From: a virus
Lineage: Duplodnaviria; Caudoviricetes
Strand: one strand, 5' to 3'
Virus record (IMG/VR): IMGVR_UViG_3300037697_000022
Location: 1-36,303 of that record
DNA: 36,303 bases
The number at the start of each line of letters is the position of its first letter. Position 1 is the stretch's first letter. A program made the translations under genes and the position numbers. Under the pieces are notes generated by a model, which worked only from the letters and a program-made list of their open reading frames with translations, was not told the origin of the DNA and did not search any database. Positions 5,073 through 30,601 of this stretch are shown here, piece by piece.

Positions 5073-5090
5073 TCCTGAACGCCCCGTGGA

Positions 5091-5127
5091 AAGGGCCGGG
5101 GGATCACTCCTCCGGCCCTTATTTTAT
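5091..5127 (+). terminator. Intrinsic terminator ending the replication operon
   Basis: AAGGGCCGG-G-GGA/TCC-T-CCGGCCCTT stem with TCAC loop, followed by ATTTTAT; at a convergent junction. Confidence 0.8.
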
Positions 5128-5157
5128 GATACCGTCTGTTTTGCTCATATTTGCCCG

Positions 5158-5220
5158 CACAGCGGAGTTGGATGGTTCAGGCTATACCCCTACCTTGGGG
5201 TTCGATTCCCCCACCGTGTG
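5158..5220 (+). ncRNA. tRNA-like element (T-arm present, no anticodon arm)
   Basis: GGGG-TTCGATT-CCCC T-arm; closing helix CACA(G)CGG/CCGTGTG; D-like hairpin containing TGG. Confidence 0.35.
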
Positions 5221-5442
5221 ATAGATCAGTGGCGAAGCTGGACGGTATCCAGCCCTGAATGCCAGCAAAAGGTGTGCCTGAGTGTACGACAGGGTGCGGC
5301 GACCAGACTCGAACTGGTGCCACGCCTGCCGCACATACTTGCCGGTGAAGCCCATCATGTGACCGGCTTCCTCCAGCGTCCAACCCAGCTGCTCGCGGAT
5401 CGCGCGCACCTCGCTTGGGGTAAGGATCGGATCATCATTCAT
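5182..5442 (-). CDS. XRE-family helix-turn-helix protein
   Basis: LTPSEVRAIREQLGWTLEEAGHMMG...WHQFESGRR. Confidence 0.85.
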   Translation of the reverse strand: MNDDPILTPSEVRAIREQLGWTLEEAGHMMGFTGKYVRQAWHQFESGRRTLSYTQAHLLLAFRAGYRPASPLIYHTVGESNPKVGV

Positions 5443-5713
5443 CTTTGATCACCTCAATGGTAAAGGCAGTCAGCGGCCGGTTCGGTGAGCCGTTCGTGTT
5501 GAACTCCTCACCCTTCACCGTGCGCCGCTTGCGCCATGTACGCCACGCGTCGGCCATAGTGTCGAACCGCAGGGCTTTCGCCTTGTCATCGGTCCACCCA
5601 CCCAGCTCTTCCGTCGCCGGCTTGTTGGGATCGTACCACTCCAGATACTGCCCTTCTGCGCCGCCGGATATCCCGGCGGCATAGCCGTGGCTCTTGATCA
5701 GATATGCCATCAC
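5435..5713 (-). CDS. Hypothetical phage protein
   Basis: GGAGG RBS; translationally coupled to its neighbours. Confidence 0.75.
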   Translation of the reverse strand: MMAYLIKSHGYAAGISGGAEGQYLEWYDPNKPATEELGGWTDDKAKALRFDTMADAWRTWRKRRTVKGEEFNTNGSPNRPLTAFTIEVIKDE

Positions 5714-6310
5714 TCACCTCCAAAAATAGGCGCGGTCGCGCCTGCGCTGCGCGAGGTAGAAGTCCCTACCCCACGATCCTTGCCAGTCGGCCTTGCCGCC
5801 ATACTTCCGGTGCAGCCGCTTGCTCTCCTCATACTCGTCGTCACTGAAATCGTCCCAGATGTCGTGCCACACCGCGCCATACCGAGAATGGGCCGGCGGG
5901 TAGGTGAAGGCGTCGGCGTTGACGATCTCGACGCGTGGATCGACGGTGTAAGTTGGTCCGACCAGCGCGATCACGTCCGGATCGATCTCGACCACGGTCG
6001 CGGAAATCACCTCGGGCTTCTTCAACACCGCTCCCAGCGCCAGCCCAAGGCCAAGCCCGTTCATCAACACGTGGCCATGCGCCCGCCGGATGAATGGCAA
6101 GTGGTCGCGCTGCTCTGCCAGCGTGTCGCTCATGACGATGCCGCGATCATTGTGGATCAGCCGGGTGAATAGCCCAGCGCCCGGATCACGGCCGTCGAAC
6201 ATCAACCGCAGGCGCGCGATGTTCGGCTCCTTCGGAATCTCGAACCGCTCAATGGTCCACTTGCCGCGCTCGCCTTCCGGCACGGCAACCCTGTCAATCA
6301 ACGTCGTCAT
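5714..6310 (-). CDS. Class I SAM-dependent methyltransferase, spermidine-synthase-like fold
   Basis: MSDT..E..DH, VLMNGLGLG (motif I), TVVEIDPDVI, IVNADAF, WHDIW. Confidence 0.82.
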   Translation of the reverse strand: MTTLIDRVAVPEGERGKWTIERFEIPKEPNIARLRLMFDGRDPGAGLFTRLIHNDRGIVMSDTLAEQRDHLPFIRRAHGHVLMNGLGLGLALGAVLKKPEVISATVVEIDPDVIALVGPTYTVDPRVEIVNADAFTYPPAHSRYGAVWHDIWDDFSDDEYEESKRLHRKYGGKADWQGSWGRDFYLAQRRRDRAYFWR

Positions 6311-6540
6311 CACCAACTCCTTCTGTAGTAGTCCGTGCCATCCTCATTGATGCGGATCGCAACAATGTCCGTCACGTCCATGTTGTGCTTTCGGGCATAT
6401 TCCTGCCGCGCCTCGTAGGCGCCTCCTACACGATCCGCCTTGATGTGTGCGACTTCTGGCCAAGGACTCGCATAGCGCTTCCAATGCTCGCGGTCGCCGG
6501 GCTCCGGTAGTGGCGCATACACCCTGTAAAGCCTGCTCAT
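6310..6540 (-). CDS. Hypothetical protein (76 aa)
   Basis: AGGAGGTGTGAC-ATG start at 6540. Confidence 0.7.
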   Translation of the reverse strand: MSRLYRVYAPLPEPGDREHWKRYASPWPEVAHIKADRVGGAYEARQEYARKHNMDVTDIVAIRINEDGTDYYRRSW

Positions 6541-6629
6541 GTCACACCTCCTGCGATCACCCAAAGCACCAAGGCTCCTGACAGCACCGCCGCCAGCACC
6601 TGCATCATAGCGATGTATTCCTTGCTCAT
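6537..6629 (-). CDS. Small single-TM membrane protein (30 aa)
   Basis: MSKEYIAMMQVLAAVLSGALVLWVIAGGVT; AAGGAGGTGTGAC RBS. Confidence 0.7.
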   Translation of the reverse strand: MSKEYIAMMQVLAAVLSGALVLWVIAGGVT

Positions 6630-6815
6630 GTCACACCTCCTTAAACCAGATACTGGATGCCGTACGCCAGCACCCAAAACGCCACTGCGCCGGCCGGCGC
6701 GAACCATCCAGAGATCGGCCGTGGTGCCATCCCCGCGATCAACCAACCAAGCCCGGCCCCGAAAAGCAGCACCTGCCACACCGCGATGTATTCCTGAGCG
6801 TCCATGTCACACCTC
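6538..6815 (-). repeat. Three copies of the 13-bp start cassette GAGGTGTGACATG
   Basis: CATGTCACACCTC at 6538-6550, 6627-6639 and 6803-6815. Confidence 0.9.
6641..6805 (-). CDS. Small two-TM membrane protein (54 aa)
   Basis: Not in the ORF track. MDAQEYIAVWQVLLFGAGLGWLIAGMAPRPISGWFAPAGAVAFWVLAYGIQYLV; GAGGTG RBS. Confidence 0.75.
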   Translation of the reverse strand: MDAQEYIAVWQVLLFGAGLGWLIAGMAPRPISGWFAPAGAVAFWVLAYGIQYLV

Positions 6816-7178
6816 ACTGATCTTCACACACCCGGTCTTGATCGCCGCGTCCGGGTTGAAGGCGGCTTGCTTCTCGCCGATGATGCAATCTTCCTCATCG
6901 GGAATCTCGTAGGTGCAGAGCCGATAGCCGATCTCATCCAGCTTCTCGCGCTCCCACTTGCGGCGCACCCACGACTTCATCTGGCTGATGCTGGTGAAGG
7001 CGAACCGGGTGTGATCCCACCGTCCCCGCCGCTGGAACGCCGGGTCATAGGTTGGGCTCGGCCGCGACCGCGTCGCGCCTCCATCCCAACCCAGCGCCTT
7101 CGCGCCCATCCCGGCCCAGATGCCCCATCCCTCTGCGTCCTCGATCCGATAGAGCGTCGTTCCAAACAGGTTGGCCAT
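6807..7178 (-). CDS. Hypothetical phage protein
   Basis: AGGAGGAGG RBS; LYRIE...FAF...YE...KQAAF pattern. Confidence 0.75.
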   Translation of the reverse strand: MANLFGTTLYRIEDAEGWGIWAGMGAKALGWDGGATRSRPSPTYDPAFQRRGRWDHTRFAFTSISQMKSWVRRKWEREKLDEIGYRLCTYEIPDEEDCIIGEKQAAFNPDAAIKTGCVKISEV

Positions 7179-7352
7179 CTATGCCTCCTCCTGTGTTTCG
7201 TGCACCCGCTCGGCGATGAAGTCGGCGTACCAGTCAGCCCACTCCTCATCGCGCTTGCCCAGCTTGGCCTCGTACTTGGCATGTGCCGCCTCAGCTTCCC
7301 GCAACAGCACCGCCAGCTCGTCGGCGTCTTGAATCCTCAGCACCTCACCCAT
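7179..7352 (-). CDS. Hypothetical protein (57 aa)
   Basis: Not in the ORF track. MGEVLRIQDADELAVLLREAEAAHAKYEAKLGKRDEEWADWYADFIAERVHETQEEA; fills the gap exactly, with GAGGAGG RBS. Confidence 0.75.
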   Translation of the reverse strand: MGEVLRIQDADELAVLLREAEAAHAKYEAKLGKRDEEWADWYADFIAERVHETQEEA

Positions 7353-7565
7353 CTAAGCCTCCTCATTGTTGGCGCTCAGAACCTCTCTGATCCGCGCCTC
7401 GGCGTCCTTGCCGATCTGCTCGATGGCAGCAACGGTCGCCGCCATCCTGTCACCCTCGTCGTTGTCGCCGCACTCGGCGGCCTCTTCGAGCAAAGCTGCC
7501 AGCTGCTCGAACGTCCCTGCCAGCTTTTCCATCGCCAGCTTGTGGGGGTTGTCTGCGTAGATCAT
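7353..7565 (-). CDS. Hypothetical helical protein (70 aa)
   Basis: AAGGAGGG RBS before ATG 7565. Confidence 0.7.
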   Translation of the reverse strand: MIYADNPHKLAMEKLAGTFEQLAALLEEAAECGDNDEGDRMAATVAAIEQIGKDAEARIREVLSANNEEA

Positions 7566-7576
7566 CTGTCCCTCCT

Positions 7577-7735
7577 TCACCAAAGGTTGAGGCTCATCCT
7601 GAGCCCGGTGCCCCAGATGATGACGTTGATCATCACCAACGGCAGCAGCGCCCATTCCCAATCGGCGCTCATGTACCAGCGCAGCTCCGATCCGAACCAC
7701 CGGATCACCCGCGCCTCGATCCTCTCAGTGTCCAT
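7577..7735 (-). CDS. Small membrane protein (52 aa)
   Basis: AAGGAGGG RBS before ATG 7735; hydrophobic WALLPLVMINVIIWG. Confidence 0.65.
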   Translation of the reverse strand: MDTERIEARVIRWFGSELRWYMSADWEWALLPLVMINVIIWGTGLRMSLNLW

Positions 7736-7791
7736 CTTTCCCTCCTTCGTGGGTCCGTCATCCGGGCGCGACTGGCGCCCGGCAAACTGAC

Positions 7792-7848
7792 CTACTTCTT
7801 GCCGATGATCCGCTTGGCCTGCGCGATCATGAGAGCGAGGTATTCCAT
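7792..7848 (-). CDS. Putative 18-aa peptide
   Basis: MEYLALMIAQAKRIIGKK; AGGAGG RBS; ATG directly follows the upstream stop. Confidence 0.45.
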   Translation of the reverse strand: MEYLALMIAQAKRIIGKK

Positions 7849-8151
7849 TCAAGCCTCCTGAGCGATGTTGATGATGGTTTCGAGGGCGGTCAGGACGTGC
7901 ACGTGAACGTCCTTGCCAGTCCGGAAATACGTGGTCCGACCGAAGATCGCCCGAAAAAGCCAGTGGTAGCATTCGACCGGATTGTGACGGCAGTTCCTGT
8001 AGACACAGGCGATGAGGATGAAGGTGGCGCCGTCGAAGTGATCCACCTCCACCGAGCGCTTGGCTTCCGCCTTGTGATACTCGCTGAGCGAGTAGACGTG
8101 CTCAATCGAGAACTCAGAGCGGATCGCCAGTAGCTCACCCTTTGCTATCAT
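7849..8151 (-). CDS. Hypothetical protein
   Basis: AAAGGAGG RBS; first gene after the promoter at 8180-8209. Confidence 0.75.
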   Translation of the reverse strand: MIAKGELLAIRSEFSIEHVYSLSEYHKAEAKRSVEVDHFDGATFILIACVYRNCRHNPVECYHWLFRAIFGRTTYFRTGKDVHVHVLTALETIINIAQEA

Positions 8152-8179
8152 TGTGTCCTCCTTTGTTTCCTACCCTCAC

Positions 8180-8209
8180 AATGTAGGGCCTGCGTCCTAC
8201 GGCGTCAAG
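8180..8209 (-). promoter_or_regulatory. Early-type promoter with GTAG-N10-CTAC palindrome
   Basis: TTGACG(8208-8203)-N17-TACATT(8185-8180). Confidence 0.85.
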
Positions 8210-8238
8210 TGGGAAAATGCATCACGCTGCATCTTTTT

Positions 8239-8541
8239 TCAAAGCGACTCCATGAAGGCGTCGTCGCCTTGGACGATCACCACGTTGCCCACAAGGAAGT
8301 CGCCCGCCTGCGTCTGTTTGCGCCACAGATTGGTGGCGACGCTGTTGACCGGCAGACCCTTCAACTTGCCCTCCTCATTGCAGAAGGCGACGCACGCCTT
8401 GCGGTGGAACTTGGTGAAGCCGGGCACCTCTTCGATGTAGCCGCCGACGCCGGCTTGCAGCGCCTCCAGCTTGATCGGATCGGTGTAGCCATTGGTGGTC
8501 ATCTGGCCGGTCGGCTCGATGGTGGTCACGGTTCCTCTCAT
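8239..8541 (-). CDS. DUF3846-like protein
   Basis: LEALQAGVGGYIEEV...CNEEGKLKGLPVN..AT...LVGNVVI. Confidence 0.78.
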   Translation of the reverse strand: MRGTVTTIEPTGQMTTNGYTDPIKLEALQAGVGGYIEEVPGFTKFHRKACVAFCNEEGKLKGLPVNSVATNLWRKQTQAGDFLVGNVVIVQGDDAFMESL

Positions 8542-8542
8542 G

Positions 8543-8836
8543 TCAGCTCTCCTTTCCTTTTGCGATGGTCTGCGTCTCTGAGTAGCCGCGTGGCCATATG
8601 GCGAAGGCCACAACACCACGCAGCCAGACAGCGTCATCGGCGCCCTCGCCAAGCGAGGCGTCCATCGCCATGCTGGCGCCGGCCCACAGATCGAGGTTCA
8701 TCCTATCGACTGCACTCCCACCCATGACGCGGCCGGTGCGCTCCTTGTGCTGCCGCTTCTGCTCTTCAACCCGCGCTTCGATCCGAGCGGCGATGCTGAT
8801 CAGCAGCTCTTGGCGGCGTCCGTTGCTGTGGTCCAT
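8543..8836 (-). CDS. Hypothetical protein
   Basis: AGGAGGG RBS; packed in the operon. Confidence 0.7.
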   Translation of the reverse strand: MDHSNGRRQELLISIAARIEARVEEQKRQHKERTGRVMGGSAVDRMNLDLWAGASMAMDASLGEGADDAVWLRGVVAFAIWPRGYSETQTIAKGKES

Positions 8837-8837
8837 G

Positions 8838-8978
8838 TCAGTACCCTCCTGTGAGTTCGATGCGCCACCGGGCGCCGAACTGATCCGGGTAGGCTCGGAA
8901 GGAAACGCCCTCCCTAACCAGCCCGGCGATGATGGTGGCCAAGTCCTTCAACTCGATGTCCTCGATCACCTTGGTCAT
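8838..8978 (-). CDS. Hypothetical protein (46 aa)
   Basis: Not in the ORF track. MTKVIEDIELKDLATIIAGLVREGVSFRAYPDQFGARWRIELTGGY; GGAGG RBS; ATGA overlap. Confidence 0.7.
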   Translation of the reverse strand: MTKVIEDIELKDLATIIAGLVREGVSFRAYPDQFGARWRIELTGGY

Positions 8979-9283
8979 GATGTAGCCTCCAGAACCTCGG
9001 GCAGGTAGTTGGCGAGGGTAAGCTTGGCAGCTGCCAGATCAGCCACGCTGAACGCCTCGGGGAAAGTCACCGCGACCATCGCCCAATCCGCGTCCTCCTC
9101 GTACCAGCCGGAATGGCTGAAAGCGGTTGCCTTCATGGCGTCCGGCATCTGGGCGTAGCGCTCGGGCGAAAGCCGAATGCCACCGTGGCTGGGGGTGCTG
9201 ACAAACCAGATACCCGGTGCCAGCTCCCACGAGTCTTGGATGATGCCCCAAGGGCTCATCTGTCCGTTCAGTGGTCCGTTCAT
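8975..9283 (-). CDS. Conserved mobile-element protein (DUF7007-like)
   Basis: PWG..Q...PGIWFVSTPSHGGI.LS.ER...WYEEDADW; GGAGGG RBS before ATG 9283. Confidence 0.72.
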   Translation of the reverse strand: MNGPLNGQMSPWGIIQDSWELAPGIWFVSTPSHGGIRLSPERYAQMPDAMKATAFSHSGWYEEDADWAMVAVTFPEAFSVADLAAAKLTLANYLPEVLEATS

Positions 9284-9516
9284 TACATTCCCTCCATTGC
9301 TTTGTAGACGCTGCTGTAGTTGTAGATGCCGCCATCCGGCGTCCGGAACGGGAGCTGCCCGCTGCGGATGGTCTGCATGAACAGCTGTGCCGCGCGCTTC
9401 CGCGACCCGGTCGACTCCATGCAGTCCTTGGCGAAGGTGTAGAGTCCCTCGTCGTTGTTGATCCAGAGGCTCACGTTCCACGCGTTCCAGCTGGAATGTC
9501 CGTTGTACTTGGCCAT
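9283..9516 (-). CDS. Conserved phage early protein (YNG..WNVxLWxxNDExxY type)
   Basis: KYNGHSSWNAWNVSLWINNDEGLY; AAAGGAGAGG RBS. Confidence 0.75.
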   Translation of the reverse strand: MAKYNGHSSWNAWNVSLWINNDEGLYTFAKDCMESTGSRKRAAQLFMQTIRSGQLPFRTPDGGIYNYSSVYKAMEGM

Positions 9517-9537
9517 CTGTCCTCTCCTTTCATGCCT

Positions 9538-9567
9538 CATGTAGGGCACGCGCCCTACCCCGTCAAG
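9538..9567 (-). promoter_or_regulatory. Early-type promoter with GTAGGGC-N4-GCCCTAC palindrome
   Basis: TTGACG(9566-9561)-N17-TACATG(9543-9538). Confidence 0.85.
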
Positions 9568-9579
9568 AGGCGCGGTGCA

Positions 9580-9765
9580 TCACTTTGCACTGGCGCCGAT
9601 CTTGTCCCACACCCGGCGCGCAATCTTGTGGGCGTTGCGCTGGGGTTGCCGCACGCGCACCCACTTGCGCCCGATCTTCGCCTCGACAATGCGGATGCCG
9701 CTGGCGATGCCGGGCACCTCATCGATCAGGTGCACCTGAAAGCGTGGCCATGGTTGCTTTTTCAT
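9580..9765 (-). CDS. Small basic hypothetical protein (61 aa)
   Basis: AAGGAGG RBS before ATG 9765. Confidence 0.7.
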   Translation of the reverse strand: MKKQPWPRFQVHLIDEVPGIASGIRIVEAKIGRKWVRVRQPQRNAHKIARRVWDKIGASAK

Positions 9766-9823
9766 CGGGGGTTCCTCCTTGGTTGGCCCGTTGAGCGGCG
9801 CCCTCCAGACGCCGCCTGACTGG

Positions 9824-10219
9824 TCAATCCATCCGGCTGTCGGCGTAGGCATCCTCAACGCCGCCGTCCCTCAGCACCTTGGCATAGGCGCGGGCGTAGG
9901 CTTCCTTGCGCTGCATGCTCTGCCCGAACCCGCTGACATGGACGGAGAGCCCCTTGGGGTAGCCGGTGCGCGCCTTGCCCATCCGCTTCATATAGCGTCC
10001 GAACGGCGTGTTGCCGGGGAACTTGACCCACGCGAAACCGCACACGCCATCGGCGATGTACTCTTCGGTGCCGGGGATCATTTCATCGCTGAATATGCTC
10101 TTGGCTTGTCCAACGATCATCGGCACGGGCAGGGCAGCGTGCCCCGCCTCATTGCCGGCCGTCTCAGCCTTGCGTACCAGCTCGGCGAAGACACGGTCTT
10201 GGTCGTTAAGCTTCCTCAT
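9824..10219 (-). CDS. Conserved hypothetical phage protein
   Basis: GVCGFAWV...QSMQRKEAYARAYAKVL...SRMD pattern; GAGGAGG RBS. Confidence 0.8.
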   Translation of the reverse strand: MRKLNDQDRVFAELVRKAETAGNEAGHAALPVPMIVGQAKSIFSDEMIPGTEEYIADGVCGFAWVKFPGNTPFGRYMKRMGKARTGYPKGLSVHVSGFGQSMQRKEAYARAYAKVLRDGGVEDAYADSRMD

Positions 10220-10229
10220 CTGATCCTCC

Positions 10230-10427
10230 TCAGAATTTGCAGGCGGCCATGAACTTGGCCCAATCGAAGCGGGGGTTGTCGGCTCTGAACGTGTCGGCGA
10301 CGGTCATCGCCACGTTCAACAGAGCCTGCTTGACGGCGGCATCGCAGTAGGTGTCGCCGGCAGTCTTTTCCACCTCAGCCTTGAAGGCGTCGGCGACGGC
10401 TCGGTAGTCTTTGCGGCTGGTCATCAT
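10230..10427 (-). CDS. Conserved hypothetical phage protein
   Basis: SRKDY..VA ... F.ADNPRFD..KF..AC pattern. Confidence 0.78.
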   Translation of the reverse strand: MMTSRKDYRAVADAFKAEVEKTAGDTYCDAAVKQALLNVAMTVADTFRADNPRFDWAKFMAACKF

Positions 10428-10687
10428 ATGATCCCTTCAAAATCCACACCGGCCTTGGCGACATCGCCGCCCTTCTCGCCGATGCTGCGCAGCAGGCCAC
10501 GAACCTGATCCTTGTCGGACTCAGTCAGCTCGCCGTCCTGATACAGGTTGTAGAAGCCGCCGAGTTCGTAGCACTCGTAGCAGCCCTTGAAGCCGACACT
10601 CACCGCGTTCGTCTCGCGGGTCATTCGGTCGCAGTAGCGGCACTTGAAAGCGCCGGTGCCACGCTTGAAGCCATCTGTCCTTTTCAT
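10424..10687 (-). CDS. Small Zn-binding hypothetical protein
   Basis: CRYC ... CYEC; AAAGGAGGG RBS. Confidence 0.75.
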   Translation of the reverse strand: MKRTDGFKRGTGAFKCRYCDRMTRETNAVSVGFKGCYECYELGGFYNLYQDGELTESDKDQVRGLLRSIGEKGGDVAKAGVDFEGII

Positions 10688-14675: not shown

Positions 14676-14954
14676 ATGAGCAAGTTTGAAGACAACGTGA
14701 GCCGGCTGGAGCGCAGCATTCACAACCTGATTATTGCGCACCTTGGTGACAACCCCACGCGTGATCAGGAGATCGAGGCGCTGTCAGCTATCTACAGCGC
14801 CTCTGCCGCCATCGCCTTGGCCTTCGCGGCCGGTGATCCCGTGCAGGGTGAGAAGTTCGCCCATGGTGGGATCAAGGCCGCCTTCGGCGACATTCGGGCC
14901 AGCGGCATTGGCGAGCGGTTGCGGCACGCGGTGAAGGAGGCTCGGAATGGTTAA
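14676..14954 (+). CDS. Hypothetical helical protein A2 (paralogue of 13748-14041)
   Basis: AAAGGAGGG RBS before ATG 14676. Confidence 0.78.
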   Translation: MSKFEDNVSRLERSIHNLIIAHLGDNPTRDQEIEALSAIYSASAAIALAFAAGDPVQGEKFAHGGIKAAFGDIRASGIGERLRHAVKEARNG

Positions 14955-16231: not shown

Positions 16232-16435
16232 ATGGCCAAGCTTCCGACTGTGGGCAGCAAGGTTCTCGTGCACCTCAAAAGCGGCGCCGTCGCCCCGGCC
16301 ACGGTGCTCAAACACAATGACGGCGGGCGCACGCTGGCGGTGAAGGTGGACAGCACCGGCGAGGTTCTGACCAGCCTTGGCGACATGGTGACGCCGCCGA
16401 GTCAGCCCTACTACGAAGTGCCGGTGAAGAAGTGA
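16232..16435 (+). CDS. Small beta-barrel-like hypothetical protein
   Basis: AAGGAG RBS; PTVG..V.V....PA.V pattern; possible promoter TTGACT at 16177. Confidence 0.72.
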   Translation: MAKLPTVGSKVLVHLKSGAVAPATVLKHNDGGRTLAVKVDSTGEVLTSLGDMVTPPSQPYYEVPVKK

Positions 16436-16746
16436 CCCGGCGCCGGGACGGACGCGGTCGGATCGTCGTCCTTACCCCTGACAACTTCGCCGACGCACCC
16501 CTGTCTGTCGGTGAGATCAGGGCCACCAAGGAACGCGACGGCAGCAAGTGGTCGCCGCGCGACGTGCTGATCGAAACCCTGCGGCTGATCGACAGCGGCG
16601 AGCTGGACTTGGATGTCTGCGTGGTGTGCTGGCGGACGAAGGATGATGGTGGGATCAGCTGGACGCAAGCCTCACCGGACTTTGACCTTTCTATCAGCGT
16701 GATGGCACAGGCGATGCACTCGCTTATTGACCGCTCAAAGGCGTAG
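16432..16746 (+). CDS. Hypothetical phage protein
   Basis: GTGA overlap; WSPRDVL...LR.ID.G. Confidence 0.7.
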   Translation: MTRRRDGRGRIVVLTPDNFADAPLSVGEIRATKERDGSKWSPRDVLIETLRLIDSGELDLDVCVVCWRTKDDGGISWTQASPDFDLSISVMAQAMHSLIDRSKA

Positions 16747-16761
16747 CTATAGATTGCCACC

Positions 16762-16841
16762 GTGCTCCTCCTCCTGAGCACTTGGCCCCGGCCCCGGCAG
16801 AGGGTTCAGCCCTCCTTTCCCCCTGCTGGGGCCACCTTTTC
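16762..16841 (+). ncRNA. Predicted cuckoo-like anti-Shine-Dalgarno sRNA 1
   Basis: Promoter TTGACC(16727)-N17-TAGATT(16750); hairpin GTGCTC-[CTCCTCCT]-GAGCAC; second hairpin (16790-16833) enclosing CCCTCCTTTCC; U-tract. Confidence 0.72.
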
Positions 16842-16865
16842 CCCCACCATCATGAGGCAAGTGTG

Positions 16866-16949
16866 ATGATGAGCTGGCAGGCCGCCTACTATTCCACCAT
16901 CACGTTTGTGGTCATCATCTTCTTGGCCACTGTCCTGTTCGTGTCATGA
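16866..16949 (+). CDS. Small hydrophobic peptide (27 aa, one TM)
   Basis: Not in the ORF track. MMSWQAAYYSTITFVVIIFLATVLFVS; GAGG RBS. Confidence 0.55.
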   Translation: MMSWQAAYYSTITFVVIIFLATVLFVS

Positions 16950-16959
16950 GGAGCAACGA

Positions 16960-17130
16960 ATGAGCGCAGCAGCATCAAAGCGCCGCCGCCGGCAGTACGC
17001 CAACGGCTTCGCCCACCTCCCTAAGCAGCGCCGCCCCGGATACAAGATCACCTCTATCGAGAAGGCCAAGCGCCGGCTCGAACAGGTGGTTGAAAAGCAG
17101 AAGGCCATGCAAAGGAGAAAGAAGGTATGA
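16960..17130 (+). CDS. Small, highly basic protein (56 aa)
   Basis: GAGGAG RBS; R/K-rich. Confidence 0.7.
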   Translation: MSAAASKRRRRQYANGFAHLPKQRRPGYKITSIEKAKRRLEQVVEKQKAMQRRKKV

Positions 17131-17318
17131 CGATTCGAGCGCACCTGAAGAACCCTGCTTATGCCGATGATGTCGGCATGATCAAGGTCACCATCGAACG
17201 GCTGGTCGGCGGCAAATGGGTCGCCGACGCCATCCCCACAATTCTGCCGGCTGGACCCGGCGAATTGCTGCTGACGATTGTCCCTGATCGTCGGTTTATC
17301 CTCGAACAGAAGGAATGA
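17127..17318 (+). CDS. Hypothetical protein
   Basis: ATGA overlap. Confidence 0.7.
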   Translation: MTIRAHLKNPAYADDVGMIKVTIERLVGGKWVADAIPTILPAGPGELLLTIVPDRRFILEQKE

Positions 17319-17322
17319 GGCT

Positions 17323-17595
17323 ATGAGCATGGACTACGCAAACGTTCTGGAAGCATTGAAGAGAGGCCATCGCGTGTCACGCGGCGGCTGGCCACGTGGC
17401 GATTATGTGGTGCTCGCCACCGGCGGCACCTTCAACATCGAAGGCCAGCCGATGGGAAATCTGGCACCCTTCTGCGTGCGTCACCGGGACGGCAAGTTCT
17501 ACGTCTGGCAACCCACCAACTACGACCAGCTCAGCGAGGATTGGGTGGCAACCCCGTTCGCGGAATATGTTGACGCACAGGCCGCCAGCGCCTAA
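17323..17595 (+). CDS. DUF2829 / Tad2-like (Thoeris anti-defence 2-like) protein
   Basis: MDY..VLEALKRG.RVSR.GW ... WQPT..DQLSEDW matches the DUF2829 consensus MxFxxAlxxlkxGxkvxRxgW...WxPsqxDxLAxDW. Confidence 0.8.
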   Translation: MSMDYANVLEALKRGHRVSRGGWPRGDYVVLATGGTFNIEGQPMGNLAPFCVRHRDGKFYVWQPTNYDQLSEDWVATPFAEYVDAQAASA

Positions 17596-17604
17596 TCTGG
17601 CGTC

Positions 17605-17741
17605 GTTCACGTAGTAGGGAACTTAGCACGGACTTGCGAACCTGCCCTGATCCCGCGATAGGCGTCTCGCGACCTCAACAGCGGATGCAAGTCAGGGTGG
17701 ATGAACCCTCCAGAGGCTGACGCTCCTCTGGGGGGTTTTCT
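17605..17741 (+). ncRNA. Predicted structured ncRNA 2 (~135 nt)
   Basis: Promoter TTGACG(17570)-N17-TAATCT(17593); several helices; terminator AACCCTCCAGAGG/CCTCTGGGGGGTT-TTCT (17704-17741); no credible ORF. Confidence 0.68.
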
Positions 17742-17776
17742 CTTGAACTGTGCAGCATGGTGACGTATATATCTGC

Positions 17777-17869
17777 AAGGCCGTGCGGGGCTTTCCTCCT
17801 CCCTTGTCCTCGCGCGCCTTAATGGAAACTTGGGGCTGGACCCTGCGACTCCTGTCCAGCCTCCTTTTT
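17777..17869 (+). ncRNA. Predicted cuckoo-family (CCUCCUCCC) sRNA 3
   Basis: Promoter CTTGAA(17742)-N17-GTATAT(17765); hairpin 17777-17820 with loop TTTCCTCCTCCCTT; terminator hairpin 17832-17863 plus T5. Confidence 0.75.
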
Positions 17870-17877
17870 CCCCGAAT

Positions 17878-17965
17878 AGCGCGGCAATCCCCCCGCCGCG
17901 CTCGAAGGATGGCCGGCGGCGATGTGGCGCCCCCCAGAAGCTAGCCCGCCATCCTTCACTCTTCC
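17878..17965 (+). ncRNA. Two further hairpins with C-rich loops (sRNA 4 or late-operon leader)
   Basis: AGCGCGGC-[AATCCCCCC]-GCCGCGCT; GAAGGATGGC(17904-17913)/GCCATCCTTC(17948-17957). Confidence 0.45.
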
Positions 17966-18033
17966 CTTCCCCACGATCCCGGTGTATCAAAGCGATTGCG
18001 TGAGGCGCGATCAACCTTTGAGGGATTCCGCAG

Positions 18034-18387
18034 ATGGCAGTCCGTAATGCGGCTCATGGCGCCTCCACCTCCGCCCACGCCAAAAAGCTGACGTGGTCCG
18101 GTCTGTTGAATACCGACACCGGCGACCACCAACTCCTCCCCTTCTTCAATGACCGCTCGGTGCAGGTGCTCGGCACCTTCGGCGCCGGCGGAGAGGTTAG
18201 CCTCGAAGGCAGCAACGACGGCGGAACCACGTGGGCGATCCTCAGCGATCCTCTCGGCAACGCCCTCACCTTCTCCGCTGCCGGGCTCAAAGCGATCTCG
18301 GAATACACCGAACGCATTCGGCCGAACGTGACGGGTGGCGACGGCACCACCGACCTGATCGTTGTCGTCTTCATGCGGGGGAGCTGA
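18034..18387 (+). CDS. Putative virion accessory beta-sandwich protein
   Basis: VQVLGTFG...V.LEGSNDGGTTW..L.D pattern; GAGGG RBS. Confidence 0.65.
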   Translation: MAVRNAAHGASTSAHAKKLTWSGLLNTDTGDHQLLPFFNDRSVQVLGTFGAGGEVSLEGSNDGGTTWAILSDPLGNALTFSAAGLKAISEYTERIRPNVTGGDGTTDLIVVVFMRGS

Positions 18388-22735: not shown

Positions 22736-22764
22736 TTGACAACGTAGTGCTGACGTCCTACATT
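22736..22764 (+). promoter_or_regulatory. Early-type promoter with GTAG-N10-CTAC palindrome
   Basis: TTGACA(22736)-N17-TACATT(22759); same architecture as 8180, 9538 and 10713. Confidence 0.82.
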
Positions 22765-27689: not shown

Positions 27690-28625
27690 ATGGCAGACGA
27701 ACAGAACGACCAACAGAAGCCCGATCCCGCCGCCGAAGCCGCAGCTGCCACAGCTGCCGCCGAAGCCGCCAAAGGCGGTAATCAGAAACCCAACGAACAG
27801 TCCGCGCTCGATAAGGGCGGTGAGGACAAGGGCGGCAACGGACCCACCGACTTCCCGGAAAACTGGCGCGAGCTGGCGGCCGGCGGTGACGCCAAGCTGG
27901 CCAAGGAGCTGGAACGCTTCGCCACCCCGGTCGATCTGGCCAAGGCAGAGTTCGCCGCCAAGCAGAAAATCCGCGCCGGCTCGGTCAGCGCCGATCCGCC
28001 GCCGGATGGGGAGAAGGACCCGGACGGGCTGAAAAAGTGGCGCGAAGAGCGGGGTATCCCGCTTGACCCCGCCGACTACAAGGTGCCGGATGACACCTCC
28101 AAGCGGCTCTATGATGAGGACAAGCCGATCCTCGAATCCTTCATCGCTGAGGCGCACAAGGCCAACATGCCGCAGGCCGTGGTGGACTTCGCCACCGGCT
28201 GGTACGTCGAGCTGCAAGAGAAGGCGGCTGAGGCTGAGGCGGCCAACGACAAAGCGCTCTCGACCAAGGCTGAGGACGATCTGCGCAGCGAGTGGGGACA
28301 GGACTACCGTCCCAACATGAGCATGGCCAAGCGCGTGGCCACCGAAACCGTCAAGGGTATCGACTGGTTCGATGCCCGCCTGCCGGACGGCCGCAAGCTT
28401 GGGGACATTCCTGAGTTCATCAAGGGGCTGGTGCAGTATGGCCGCAACGCCTATGGCGACGGCGCATTCGTTGGGGAGGAGGCGGCGACCCGCACAACGG
28501 ATCGCATCAAAGAGATTGAAAACATCATGGCAACTGATATAAGCAAGTACACGCCTGCGGTGCGGGCTGAGTACGCCGAACTTATGGCGGCTCAGGTCGC
28601 AAACAAGGCGGCAAAGGCTCGGTAA
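27690..28625 (+). CDS. Capsid assembly scaffolding protein
   Basis: Acidic/Ala-rich N-terminus; G.P..PADY, LRSEWG.DY..N; lies just before the capsid gene. Confidence 0.85.
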   Translation: MADEQNDQQKPDPAAEAAAATAAAEAAKGGNQKPNEQSALDKGGEDKGGNGPTDFPENWRELAAGGDAKLAKELERFATPVDLAKAEFAAKQKIRAGSVSADPPPDGEKDPDGLKKWREERGIPLDPADYKVPDDTSKRLYDEDKPILESFIAEAHKANMPQAVVDFATGWYVELQEKAAEAEAANDKALSTKAEDDLRSEWGQDYRPNMSMAKRVATETVKGIDWFDARLPDGRKLGDIPEFIKGLVQYGRNAYGDGAFVGEEAATRTTDRIKEIENIMATDISKYTPAVRAEYAELMAAQVANKAAKAR

Positions 28626-29963: not shown

Positions 29964-30085
29964 TCCGGCCTGATCGCTCTCTTTCGACTGTGGTGCGCCT
30001 CATGCTACGGTCGGATACGGGCAGCGCGGTTCCGCTCGCCGCGCTGCCCAACCTCAATTTGAGGCACCAACCGTGAGGCTCCAAA

Positions 30086-30601
30086 ATGACTTTCAAGGCT
30101 CTCCCCAACAAGTCCCTCCAGTTCTCGGCTGACTATCAGCGGCAGACGTGGCACGCGGAAGTGCCCAACGACACGCTGCTCGAAGAAGTGCTGATGCCGG
30201 CGTTCTGGGTCCACGTCGCCGCCCGGATCAAGGCGCATGCGCTGATCGACGTGGTGACCAAGGACGGGCTGCTCGATCTCCAGCTCCGCGTGACCAGCAT
30301 CGAAGGTGGCATCGTCGTGGTGCGCCCGCGCTTCGTCTACGAAGACAAGGAGGCACGTCAGCTCGCCATCGCCGTGAGCAATCTCCAGAATGCGGAGATC
30401 GAAAGCGAGGCGGCTCCCTCCGAACGCCGCCGGCCGCCCGAAGGGTACAAGGTCGGCTTCAACCCCGCGAAGAAGACCTACTATGCTCAATTCAAGGGCA
30501 CCGGGCAGAAGATCGCCGAAGGTCTGGCGTCGTGGGACAAGGGCGTTGACGCCTGCGAAGCGCACGACAAGAAGCTGCGCACTCCTGCAAAGGCCGCGTA
30601 A
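30086..30601 (+). CDS. Hypothetical virion-module protein
   Basis: Clean ORF between the decoration and tail genes. Confidence 0.72.
   Translation: MTFKALPNKSLQFSADYQRQTWHAEVPNDTLLEEVLMPAFWVHVAARIKAHALIDVVTKDGLLDLQLRVTSIEGGIVVVRPRFVYEDKEARQLAIAVSNLQNAEIESEAAPSERRRPPEGYKVGFNPAKKTYYAQFKGTGQKIAEGLASWDKGVDACEAHDKKLRTPAKAA

Follow-up and report, generated by a model that had tools for sequence, protein, structure and literature searches.

Does a phage carry small RNAs with anti-Shine-Dalgarno (anti-SD) loops and, if so, at which mRNAs would they be directed? The question was raised by about 1.2 kb at the early/late boundary of the window, that is, of the whole stretch of DNA analyzed, a 36.3-kb virus record that carries genes for replication and for a small terminase and, from position 18034 on, structural genes of a podovirus type, namely those for terminase, head-tail protein, capsid and tail proteins. 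The original prediction placed there three ORF-free sRNA units, each with promoter, hairpins and terminator, and five exposed anti-SD loops. In our evenly balanced judgement, two predicted transcripts would pair with Shine-Dalgarno (SD) sequences, unit 1 (16762-16841) with those of the phage's own early/middle mRNAs and unit 3, which is cuckoo-like, with SD sequences generically. The features concerned are the following.

5435-10687, minus strand: 19 small genes forming a leftward module; with their strong GGAGG/AAGGAGG sites they are probably the chief targets
16727-16755, plus strand: P1, TTGACC-17-TAGATT, a sigma70-like promoter in which the stop codon of ORF 16432-16746 lies
16762-16781, plus strand: unit 1 hairpin 1, predicted 6-bp stem with open loop CUCCUCCU (16768-75)
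16790-16833, plus strand: unit 1 hairpin 2, predicted GC-rich stem, loop with CCCUCCUUU (16810-18)
16837-16853, plus strand: weak U4 tail of unit 1, then CCCCCACCAUCAU, a motif also present in the closest relative
16866-17595, plus strand: four small ORFs (27-aa hydrophobic, 56-aa basic, 63-aa and 88-aa Tad2-like), from the ORF listing and a domain search
17570-17598, plus strand: P2, promoter-like, TTGACG-17-TAATCT, its -10 weak, situated where the Tad2-like ORF ends
17605-17742, plus strand: unit 2, strong terminator at 17704-17739, no anti-SD loop, core not stably folded
17743-17771, plus strand: P3, sigma70-like promoter, TTGAAC-17-TATATA, directly 3' of the unit 2 terminator
17777-17869, plus strand: unit 3, cuckoo-like, predicted open CCUCCUCCC (17795-803), terminator hairpin 17832-63 and U5
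17878-17957, plus strand: two stable hairpins upstream of the first late-region gene, in its leader, one with loop AAUCCCCCC (17886-94) and the other with a long stem (17904-57)
18034-18387, plus strand: first structural-region gene (117 aa), used as synteny anchor

The three promoters with 17-nt spacing were present as predicted, at 16727, 17570 and 17743, and they are clustered beyond chance. The promoter pattern occurred at 6 sites in the 36.3-kb contig, 3 of them P1-P3; a Markov null gave a mean of 0.9 per genome and reached 6 sites in 1 of 200 null genomes, and three sites within 1.1 kb on one strand were found in none of the 200. A stock consensus promoter scan listed P1, and neither P2 nor P3. 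In the closest relative, G001, P1 has a syntenic counterpart (TTGACC-17-TAGTAT) and P3 corresponds to TTGACG-17-CATATT. Four near-identical promoters of another kind (TTGAC..-17-TACAT) were seen at 8208(-), ~9566(-), 10741(-) and 22736(+). In these four a GTAG-N10-CTAC palindrome, absent from P1-P3, spans the spacer and the -10 and is likely a common operator; the copy at 22736(+) drives a transglutaminase-like peptidase gene (PF06035, 22790-23320) within the late block.

The 1.2 kb is not free of ORFs, since the four small ORFs (16866-16949, 16960-17130, 17127-17318 and 17329-17595) lie inside it, between units 1 and 2. The last of these is the Tad2-like one (PF11195, E 5.5e-15); this gene, of a Thoeris anti-defence type, directly precedes unit 2, and divergent relatives of it were seen in several soil/sediment runs. 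Unit 2 itself was rejected as an anti-SD RNA: it has no anti-SD loop and folds in its terminator only, with a folding z of -1.9 for the whole and +0.1 without the terminator. Its 3' part and terminator resemble an element of G001 ahead of the late gene. Its core (17625-17705) holds two overlapping complementarities, a possible pseudoknot or switch; the possible pseudoknot, seen by eye, consists of GACUUGC/GCAAGUC with UGCCCUGA/UCAGGGUG.

Units 1 and 3 were more stable than all of 200 shuffles (z -3.8 and -4.4, respectively), as was the leader region 17873-17975 (z -4.8). The loops CUCCUCCU, CUUUCCUCCUCCCU (unit 3, 17791-804), CCUGCGACUCCU (unit 3, 17842-53) and AAUCCCCCC were predicted to be open, at an opening cost of 0-0.2 kcal/mol for the three computed. 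Of the exposed anti-SD loops originally claimed, four are thus predicted to be open, but CCCUCCUUU is about 75-80% paired with GAGGGU of its own loop (opening cost 1.5 kcal/mol) and unit 2 has none. Units 1 and 3, each behind a sigma70-like promoter and well folded, hold up, but the terminator of unit 1 is weak: a stem, 3 nt and U4, with no U-run at that place in G001. Because of this weak terminator unit 1 may be a discrete RNA, the 3' end of a long rightward operon or the leader of the four ORFs.

Could these be ordinary cis elements, that is, terminators, processing or stabilizing hairpins and leaders whose C/U-rich loops are a by-product or pair with their own transcript? Both promoters overlap the ends of upstream units, and unit 1 continues into ORFs past a terminator that is not firm. 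Stable folding alone is also not unique to the cluster in this contig: in a sliding fold scan with 90-nt windows (805 in all, of which 319 were tested with 20 shuffles each) those of the cluster ranked 9th, 16th and 23rd, so that other windows fold equally well or better, and four clade records do not have the units. Against this, open anti-SD loops lie within ~85 nt of a promoter-like site twice in the window, while only 2 such promoter-loop cases were found in 3.3 Mb of other loci by a filter that also missed those of G001. Moreover, the loops persisted although the stems diverged, and loops arising as a by-product would not follow the dialect of the ribosome sites (see below). We consider the cis reading quite unlikely.

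Four queries were used in looking for relatives: the 117-aa gene (30 viral loci and 14 from metagenomes), the terminase (48, 19 and 80 loci, the best 4 of the 80 being examined), the capsid (5 loci) and one early gene (80 loci). Among the loci examined the units were found only in G001 (locus L001), a 56-kb record rated complete that is the closest relative of the window and colinear with it genome-wide (identity 71% for capsid, 67% for terminase and 60% for portal). CCUCCUCCC stood upstream of the 117-aa gene in 1 of the 30 viral loci, that of G001; a pattern scan for unit 1 over 109 loci found promoter plus hairpin in G001 alone; and an exact scan of IMG/VR for unit 1 hairpin 1 gave 0 matches. 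The units were absent from G002 (41% complete), G003, G004 and G006, each read whole, G006 having just a C-rich tract and a hairpin ahead of the 117-aa late gene; G005, a 12-kb fragment starting in the terminase, was covered as locus L318. When the region was compared by blastn with cultured phages and plasmids, the matches were only short and weak; two of them were examined and were uninformative. No cultured phage was close (best terminase 45%, best capsid 28%). An alphaproteobacterial host is likely for the window phage because, among named sequences, the terminase is most similar (48%) to proteins from genomes of Rhizobium and Pelagibacterium; in the order of these two genera 4 of 401 genomes had a match to the capsid at 1e-60.

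At the syntenic place G001 has unit 1, a small ORF, unit 3, a tRNA-Met(CAT) and a strong terminator. Its unit 1 comprises TTGACC-17-TAGTAT, two hairpins and a CCCCCACCA tail, and its unit 3 two CCCUCCUCCC hairpins followed by a terminator with U6; the two fold at z -5.8 and -4.5. The stems differ between the two phages and yet pair in both: in the unit 3 terminator GGCUGGAC/GUCCAGCC in the window stands against GGCGGAC/GUCCGCC in G001, one whole base pair being different. The loops of the second hairpin of unit 1 and the first hairpin of unit 3 were kept, and the CCCCCACCAUCAU motif lies 23 nt from CUCCUU in both phages. In hairpin 1 of unit 1, on the other hand, the perfect anti-SD was not kept, since the G001 loop reads AACCCUCAG; the ACUCCU and AAUCCCCCC loops are absent from G001, and no counterpart of the hairpins at 17878-17957 was found there, tRNA-Met(CAT) and other hairpins taking their place. 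For the conserved CCCCCACCA tail no target common to both phages was found.

Of the conserved loops and covarying stems looked for in relatives, two loops are kept and the stems differ yet pair in G001, the one relative found with the units; variable stems with a fixed loop in two sequences give no covariation statistic. Three sRNAs with five anti-SD loops proved too many, as two units carry such loops and two loops are kept. Orthology of the units is argued from position, layout and short motifs. Global alignments of window and G001 were equalled by 0, 41 and 1 of 1000 shuffles, the 0 being that of unit 1, with ends chosen by the analyst; in local alignment the match of unit 3 was not significant (449 of 500 shuffles were as good) and the best match to unit 1 fell elsewhere. 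Near-identical pieces of the window occur in several soil and sediment DNA runs. No RNA run containing the stretch was found. Eight DNA runs were near-identical to the window where they covered it and scarcely or not at all covered 17780-17900, and therefore showed no covariation beyond one change, G16796A, which turns a G.U into an A-U pair in the stem of unit 1 hairpin 2 (one contig of run X7, depth 2.7).

Two further observations concern these genomes. A GAGGCGC motif lies 20-30 nt ahead of the 117-aa gene (window 17985-18010, L001 4955-4985, L332 9370-9395) and is perhaps a late-promoter element in the window, G001 and G006, although its alignment is not significant. In G002 (L323 15860-16140, minus strand) about 280 ORF-poor, hairpin-rich bases precede a tRNA-Gln, with no Rfam match and z -1.6.

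Is unit 3 a member of the cuckoo family? In that family (ar14 RF02344, NfeR1, RSs0680/CcsR) hairpins stand side by side, their stems vary, an open loop exposes the anti-SD motif CCUCCUCCC, a sigma70-type promoter precedes the RNA and a U-run ends it (PMC4615179, PMC7143759); the same features are predicted for unit 3, the stems of which differ between the window and the one relative found. The kinship suggested originally did not hold by score: nothing in the window reached the Rfam gathering score, and the ar14 model, which has three hairpins, gave 17.1 bits (E 4.5) on unit 3 and 22.3 bits (E 0.85) on the G001 unit, both far below the cut-off of 58.8. The limits described for the family are a helix of 6 bp or more, a loop of 9-27 nt and a linker of 10 nt (PMC4615179). 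Unit 3 has two of the two-to-four adjacent hairpins, with loops of 14 and 12 nt on stems of 9-10 bp or more, and its core-stem linker of 12 nt exceeds the limit. The motif is not in every loop of the window unit, where it occupies one of two and the second has ACUCCU, whereas G001 unit 3 carries CCUCCUCCC in both module loops and thus has two cuckoo-type modules. The locus is not of the CcsR type, as there was no DUF1127 among the 60 proteins scanned, all neighbours included. Unit 3 is thus cuckoo-like and not a cuckoo member by score or by the every-loop rule; the phage units also differ from the family in being phage-borne and in the phage-specific loop of unit 1. The main text of the family paper does not contain 'phage' or 'prophage' (PMC4615179), and its member table may list prophage copies. 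As for the original remark that no description of this in a phage was known, no phage-encoded RNA with an anti-SD loop was found in the full-text literature searched, which lacks most subscription papers.

Twin-motif hairpins are not uncommon among viral contigs. Among 121 matching viral loci that were listed, 40 passed a filter for both motifs in loops, a few of them poorly, and 3 of 19 scanned reached the ar14 cut-off; these loci may partly be host copies at prophage edges. Intergenic two-hairpin CCUCCUCCC arrays without terminator occur in L043, L052, L053, L059, L062, L067, L079, L092 and L110 (near 2000), several just ahead of a start codon; the eight scanned, all but L053, were below the Rfam cut-off. 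Such arrays appear to be a recurring phage-borne cuckoo form.

The loop of unit 1 bears on the question of targets. AAGGAG sites precede ATG at 16 places in the window and 20 in G001, and the two phages use different forms, AAAGGAGG in the window and GAAGGAGA in G001, each matched by the second loop of its own unit 1. In the window, CCCUCCUUU is the complement of the AAAGGAGGG sites at 10687, 14676 and 7565; in G001, UUAUCUCCUUC (read as AUCUCCUUC) complements the GAAGGAGA sites, and G001 has GAAGGAGAU sites. Of the early/middle starts called by their SD, GAAGGAGA precedes 12 of 29 in G001 but 0 of 36 in the window (Fisher p 1e-5), the ratio AAGGAGG:AAGGAGA was 10:4 in the window and 2:12 in G001 (p 0.006), and the preference for the cognate unit 1 loop gave p 0.003; these p-values overstate the covariation because genes within one phage are not independent, and the comparison is of two phages across one evolutionary split. 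The commonest flanks were A-AAGGAG-GG in the window (A 9/16, G 10/16, G 6/16) and G-AAGGAG-A(U/A) in G001 (G 15/20, A 16/20, T 7/20 tied with A), so that over three flank positions the loop complement was the modal base in 6 of 6 cases, one by the tie. AAGGAG(A/G) sites numbered 14 in the window and 18 in G001 versus 1, 2, 3 and 5 in G002, G003, G004 and G006, which are without the units. Since the loop tracks the site dialect of each phage, these data favour the phage's own early/middle mRNAs as the targets of unit 1, and the parallel difference of loop and early-gene sites makes it likely that the predicted RNAs reduce the synthesis of early proteins. Loop and sites could instead both have been shaped by a differing host 16S tail.

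The last point belongs to the reading that the RNAs are mainly host-directed, being captured or mimicked cuckoo-type RNAs that repress host GGAGG mRNAs, with loop and sites following the host 16S tail. Predicted pairing was compared in two stand-in host genomes of the order Rhizobiales (200 kb of each, with slightly different filters; the true hosts may differ), which have 5 and 3 AAGGAG sites and no GAAGGAGA site. At -12 kcal/mol the unit 3 loop reached 23% and 22% of stand-in host starts and the window unit 1 loop 24% and 19%. In unit 3 the loop has the canonical host motif and is unchanged between the phages, and its full complement GGGAGGAGG precedes ATG in 0 of 2 places in the window and 0 of 4 in G001; host cuckoo members are reported to repress transporter mRNAs through the same motif (PMC7143759). 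The unit 1 loop of G001, on the contrary, does not follow the usual tail and matches the sites of its own phage: at -12 kcal/mol it reached 0 of 79 and 0 of 90 stand-in SD-bearing starts (0/169) versus 9 of 29 in G001. A mainly host-directed role is unlikely in our estimate, and for unit 1 we retain the phage's own mRNAs as the favoured targets.

Within the window, predicted binding by the loops was stronger at sites of the leftward module than at late sites: unit 1 loop 2 reached -10 or better on 16 of 19 early and 9 of 21 late starts, the early starts being picked by SD strength and two late ones (terminase, portal) mis-picked. This early-over-late preference is not distinctive, because a generic 16S tail matches it (14 of 19 and 4 of 21). 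The capsid gene site GAGGAGG (28789), which binds the unit 3 loop at -13.0, is a clear exception among late genes, and ORF 22790, within the late block, combines an early-type promoter with the strongest unit 1 loop match (-21.0). No antisense match over 12 nt was found between the units and any one gene.

The loops might instead copy the 16S 3' tail or cuckoo RNAs as protein decoys that sequester Hfq, a DUF1127 protein (CcaF1) or a ribosomal protein, pairing being secondary. The window unit 1 loop does resemble the alphaproteobacterial 16S tail, and CcaF1 is reported to act in CcsR RNA maturation and to bind many RNAs (PMC8034643); a decoy, however, need not match phage-specific flanks, and the 60 scanned proteins contain no DUF1127 domain. 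We regard decoys as very unlikely. Scarcely credible is the notion that genes on the minus strand have their ribosome sites here and that the motifs are the reverse complements of these: on that strand AGGAGGAGGAG does stand right ahead of a GTG with which a 150-codon frame begins at 16760, but this frame shadows plus-strand ORFs, one of which has relatives, and is without a match in G001, a stem would occlude the site, and the start nearest to the unit 3 motif is 17 nt off.

The RNA-based translational control proposed originally thus retains promoters, folding, synteny in G001 and a dialect-tracking loop that favours phage mRNAs, but loses unit 2 and extends over only two phages. In the mechanism that we envisage, P1 and P3 would be transcribed by the host polymerase and would fire while a repressor shuts the leftward promoters through their common GTAG-N10-CTAC palindrome. 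Predicted loop-to-site pairing would block 30S entry, as reported for NfeR1 (PMC7143759), and the RNAs would accumulate and mop up leftover early mRNA, freeing ribosomes for the structural genes, whose sites are mostly weaker. Unit 1 would form the arm tuned to the phage; unit 3, with its invariant CCUCCUCCC loop, would be the generic arm, covering host and phage GGAGG sites alike. A full two-tier switch, in which one RNA co-evolving with a private early/middle tag silences that class and a cuckoo-type RNA blankets host GGAGG, favouring structural genes, is a tentative proposal that we consider possible but doubtful. If true, an RNA reading a gene-class tag would be a translation-level early-off switch, and the two phages would be a natural swap pair of two loops and two site dialects.

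To our knowledge few phage regulatory RNAs have been characterised. The c4 RNA of P1/P7 is a phage base-pairing RNA with one or few specific targets. Lambda OOP and an Hfq-dependent lambda sRNA (bioRxiv 10.1101/2024.10.31.621285) are likewise described as phage RNAs that act by base pairing; they have one or a few specific targets, whereas the design considered here would cover a whole class of start sites. The closest published puzzle comes from Cluster K mycobacteriophages, whose start-associated sequences (SAS) extend the ribosome site by a phage-specific motif ahead of non-structural genes, as here; their description does not decide between an RNA and a protein as the binding partner and notes single copies in opposite orientation (PMC3203893). 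At 8 nt the motif here is shorter than the SAS, and it has a visible candidate partner, a hairpin linked to a promoter and carrying a complementary loop. The proposed switch would offer a testable answer to the question why many phages place repeated over-long ribosome-site motifs before small non-structural genes, which the SAS study does not settle (PMC3203893).

A few features elsewhere in the contig were recorded. ARAGORN called nothing in the window; a tRNA-like relic with a GGTTCGATTCCC arm, not called by it, lies 3' of a strong hairpin at 5085-5225 (z -4.2) between convergent modules. A gene with an N-terminal DnaJ domain (764-1441, E 1.9e-18) is also present in G001. The most stable 90-nt windows (z -8.3 to -5.1, 20 shuffles) were at ~7741-7830, 406-495, 30016-30105, 28531-28620 and 14716-14805.
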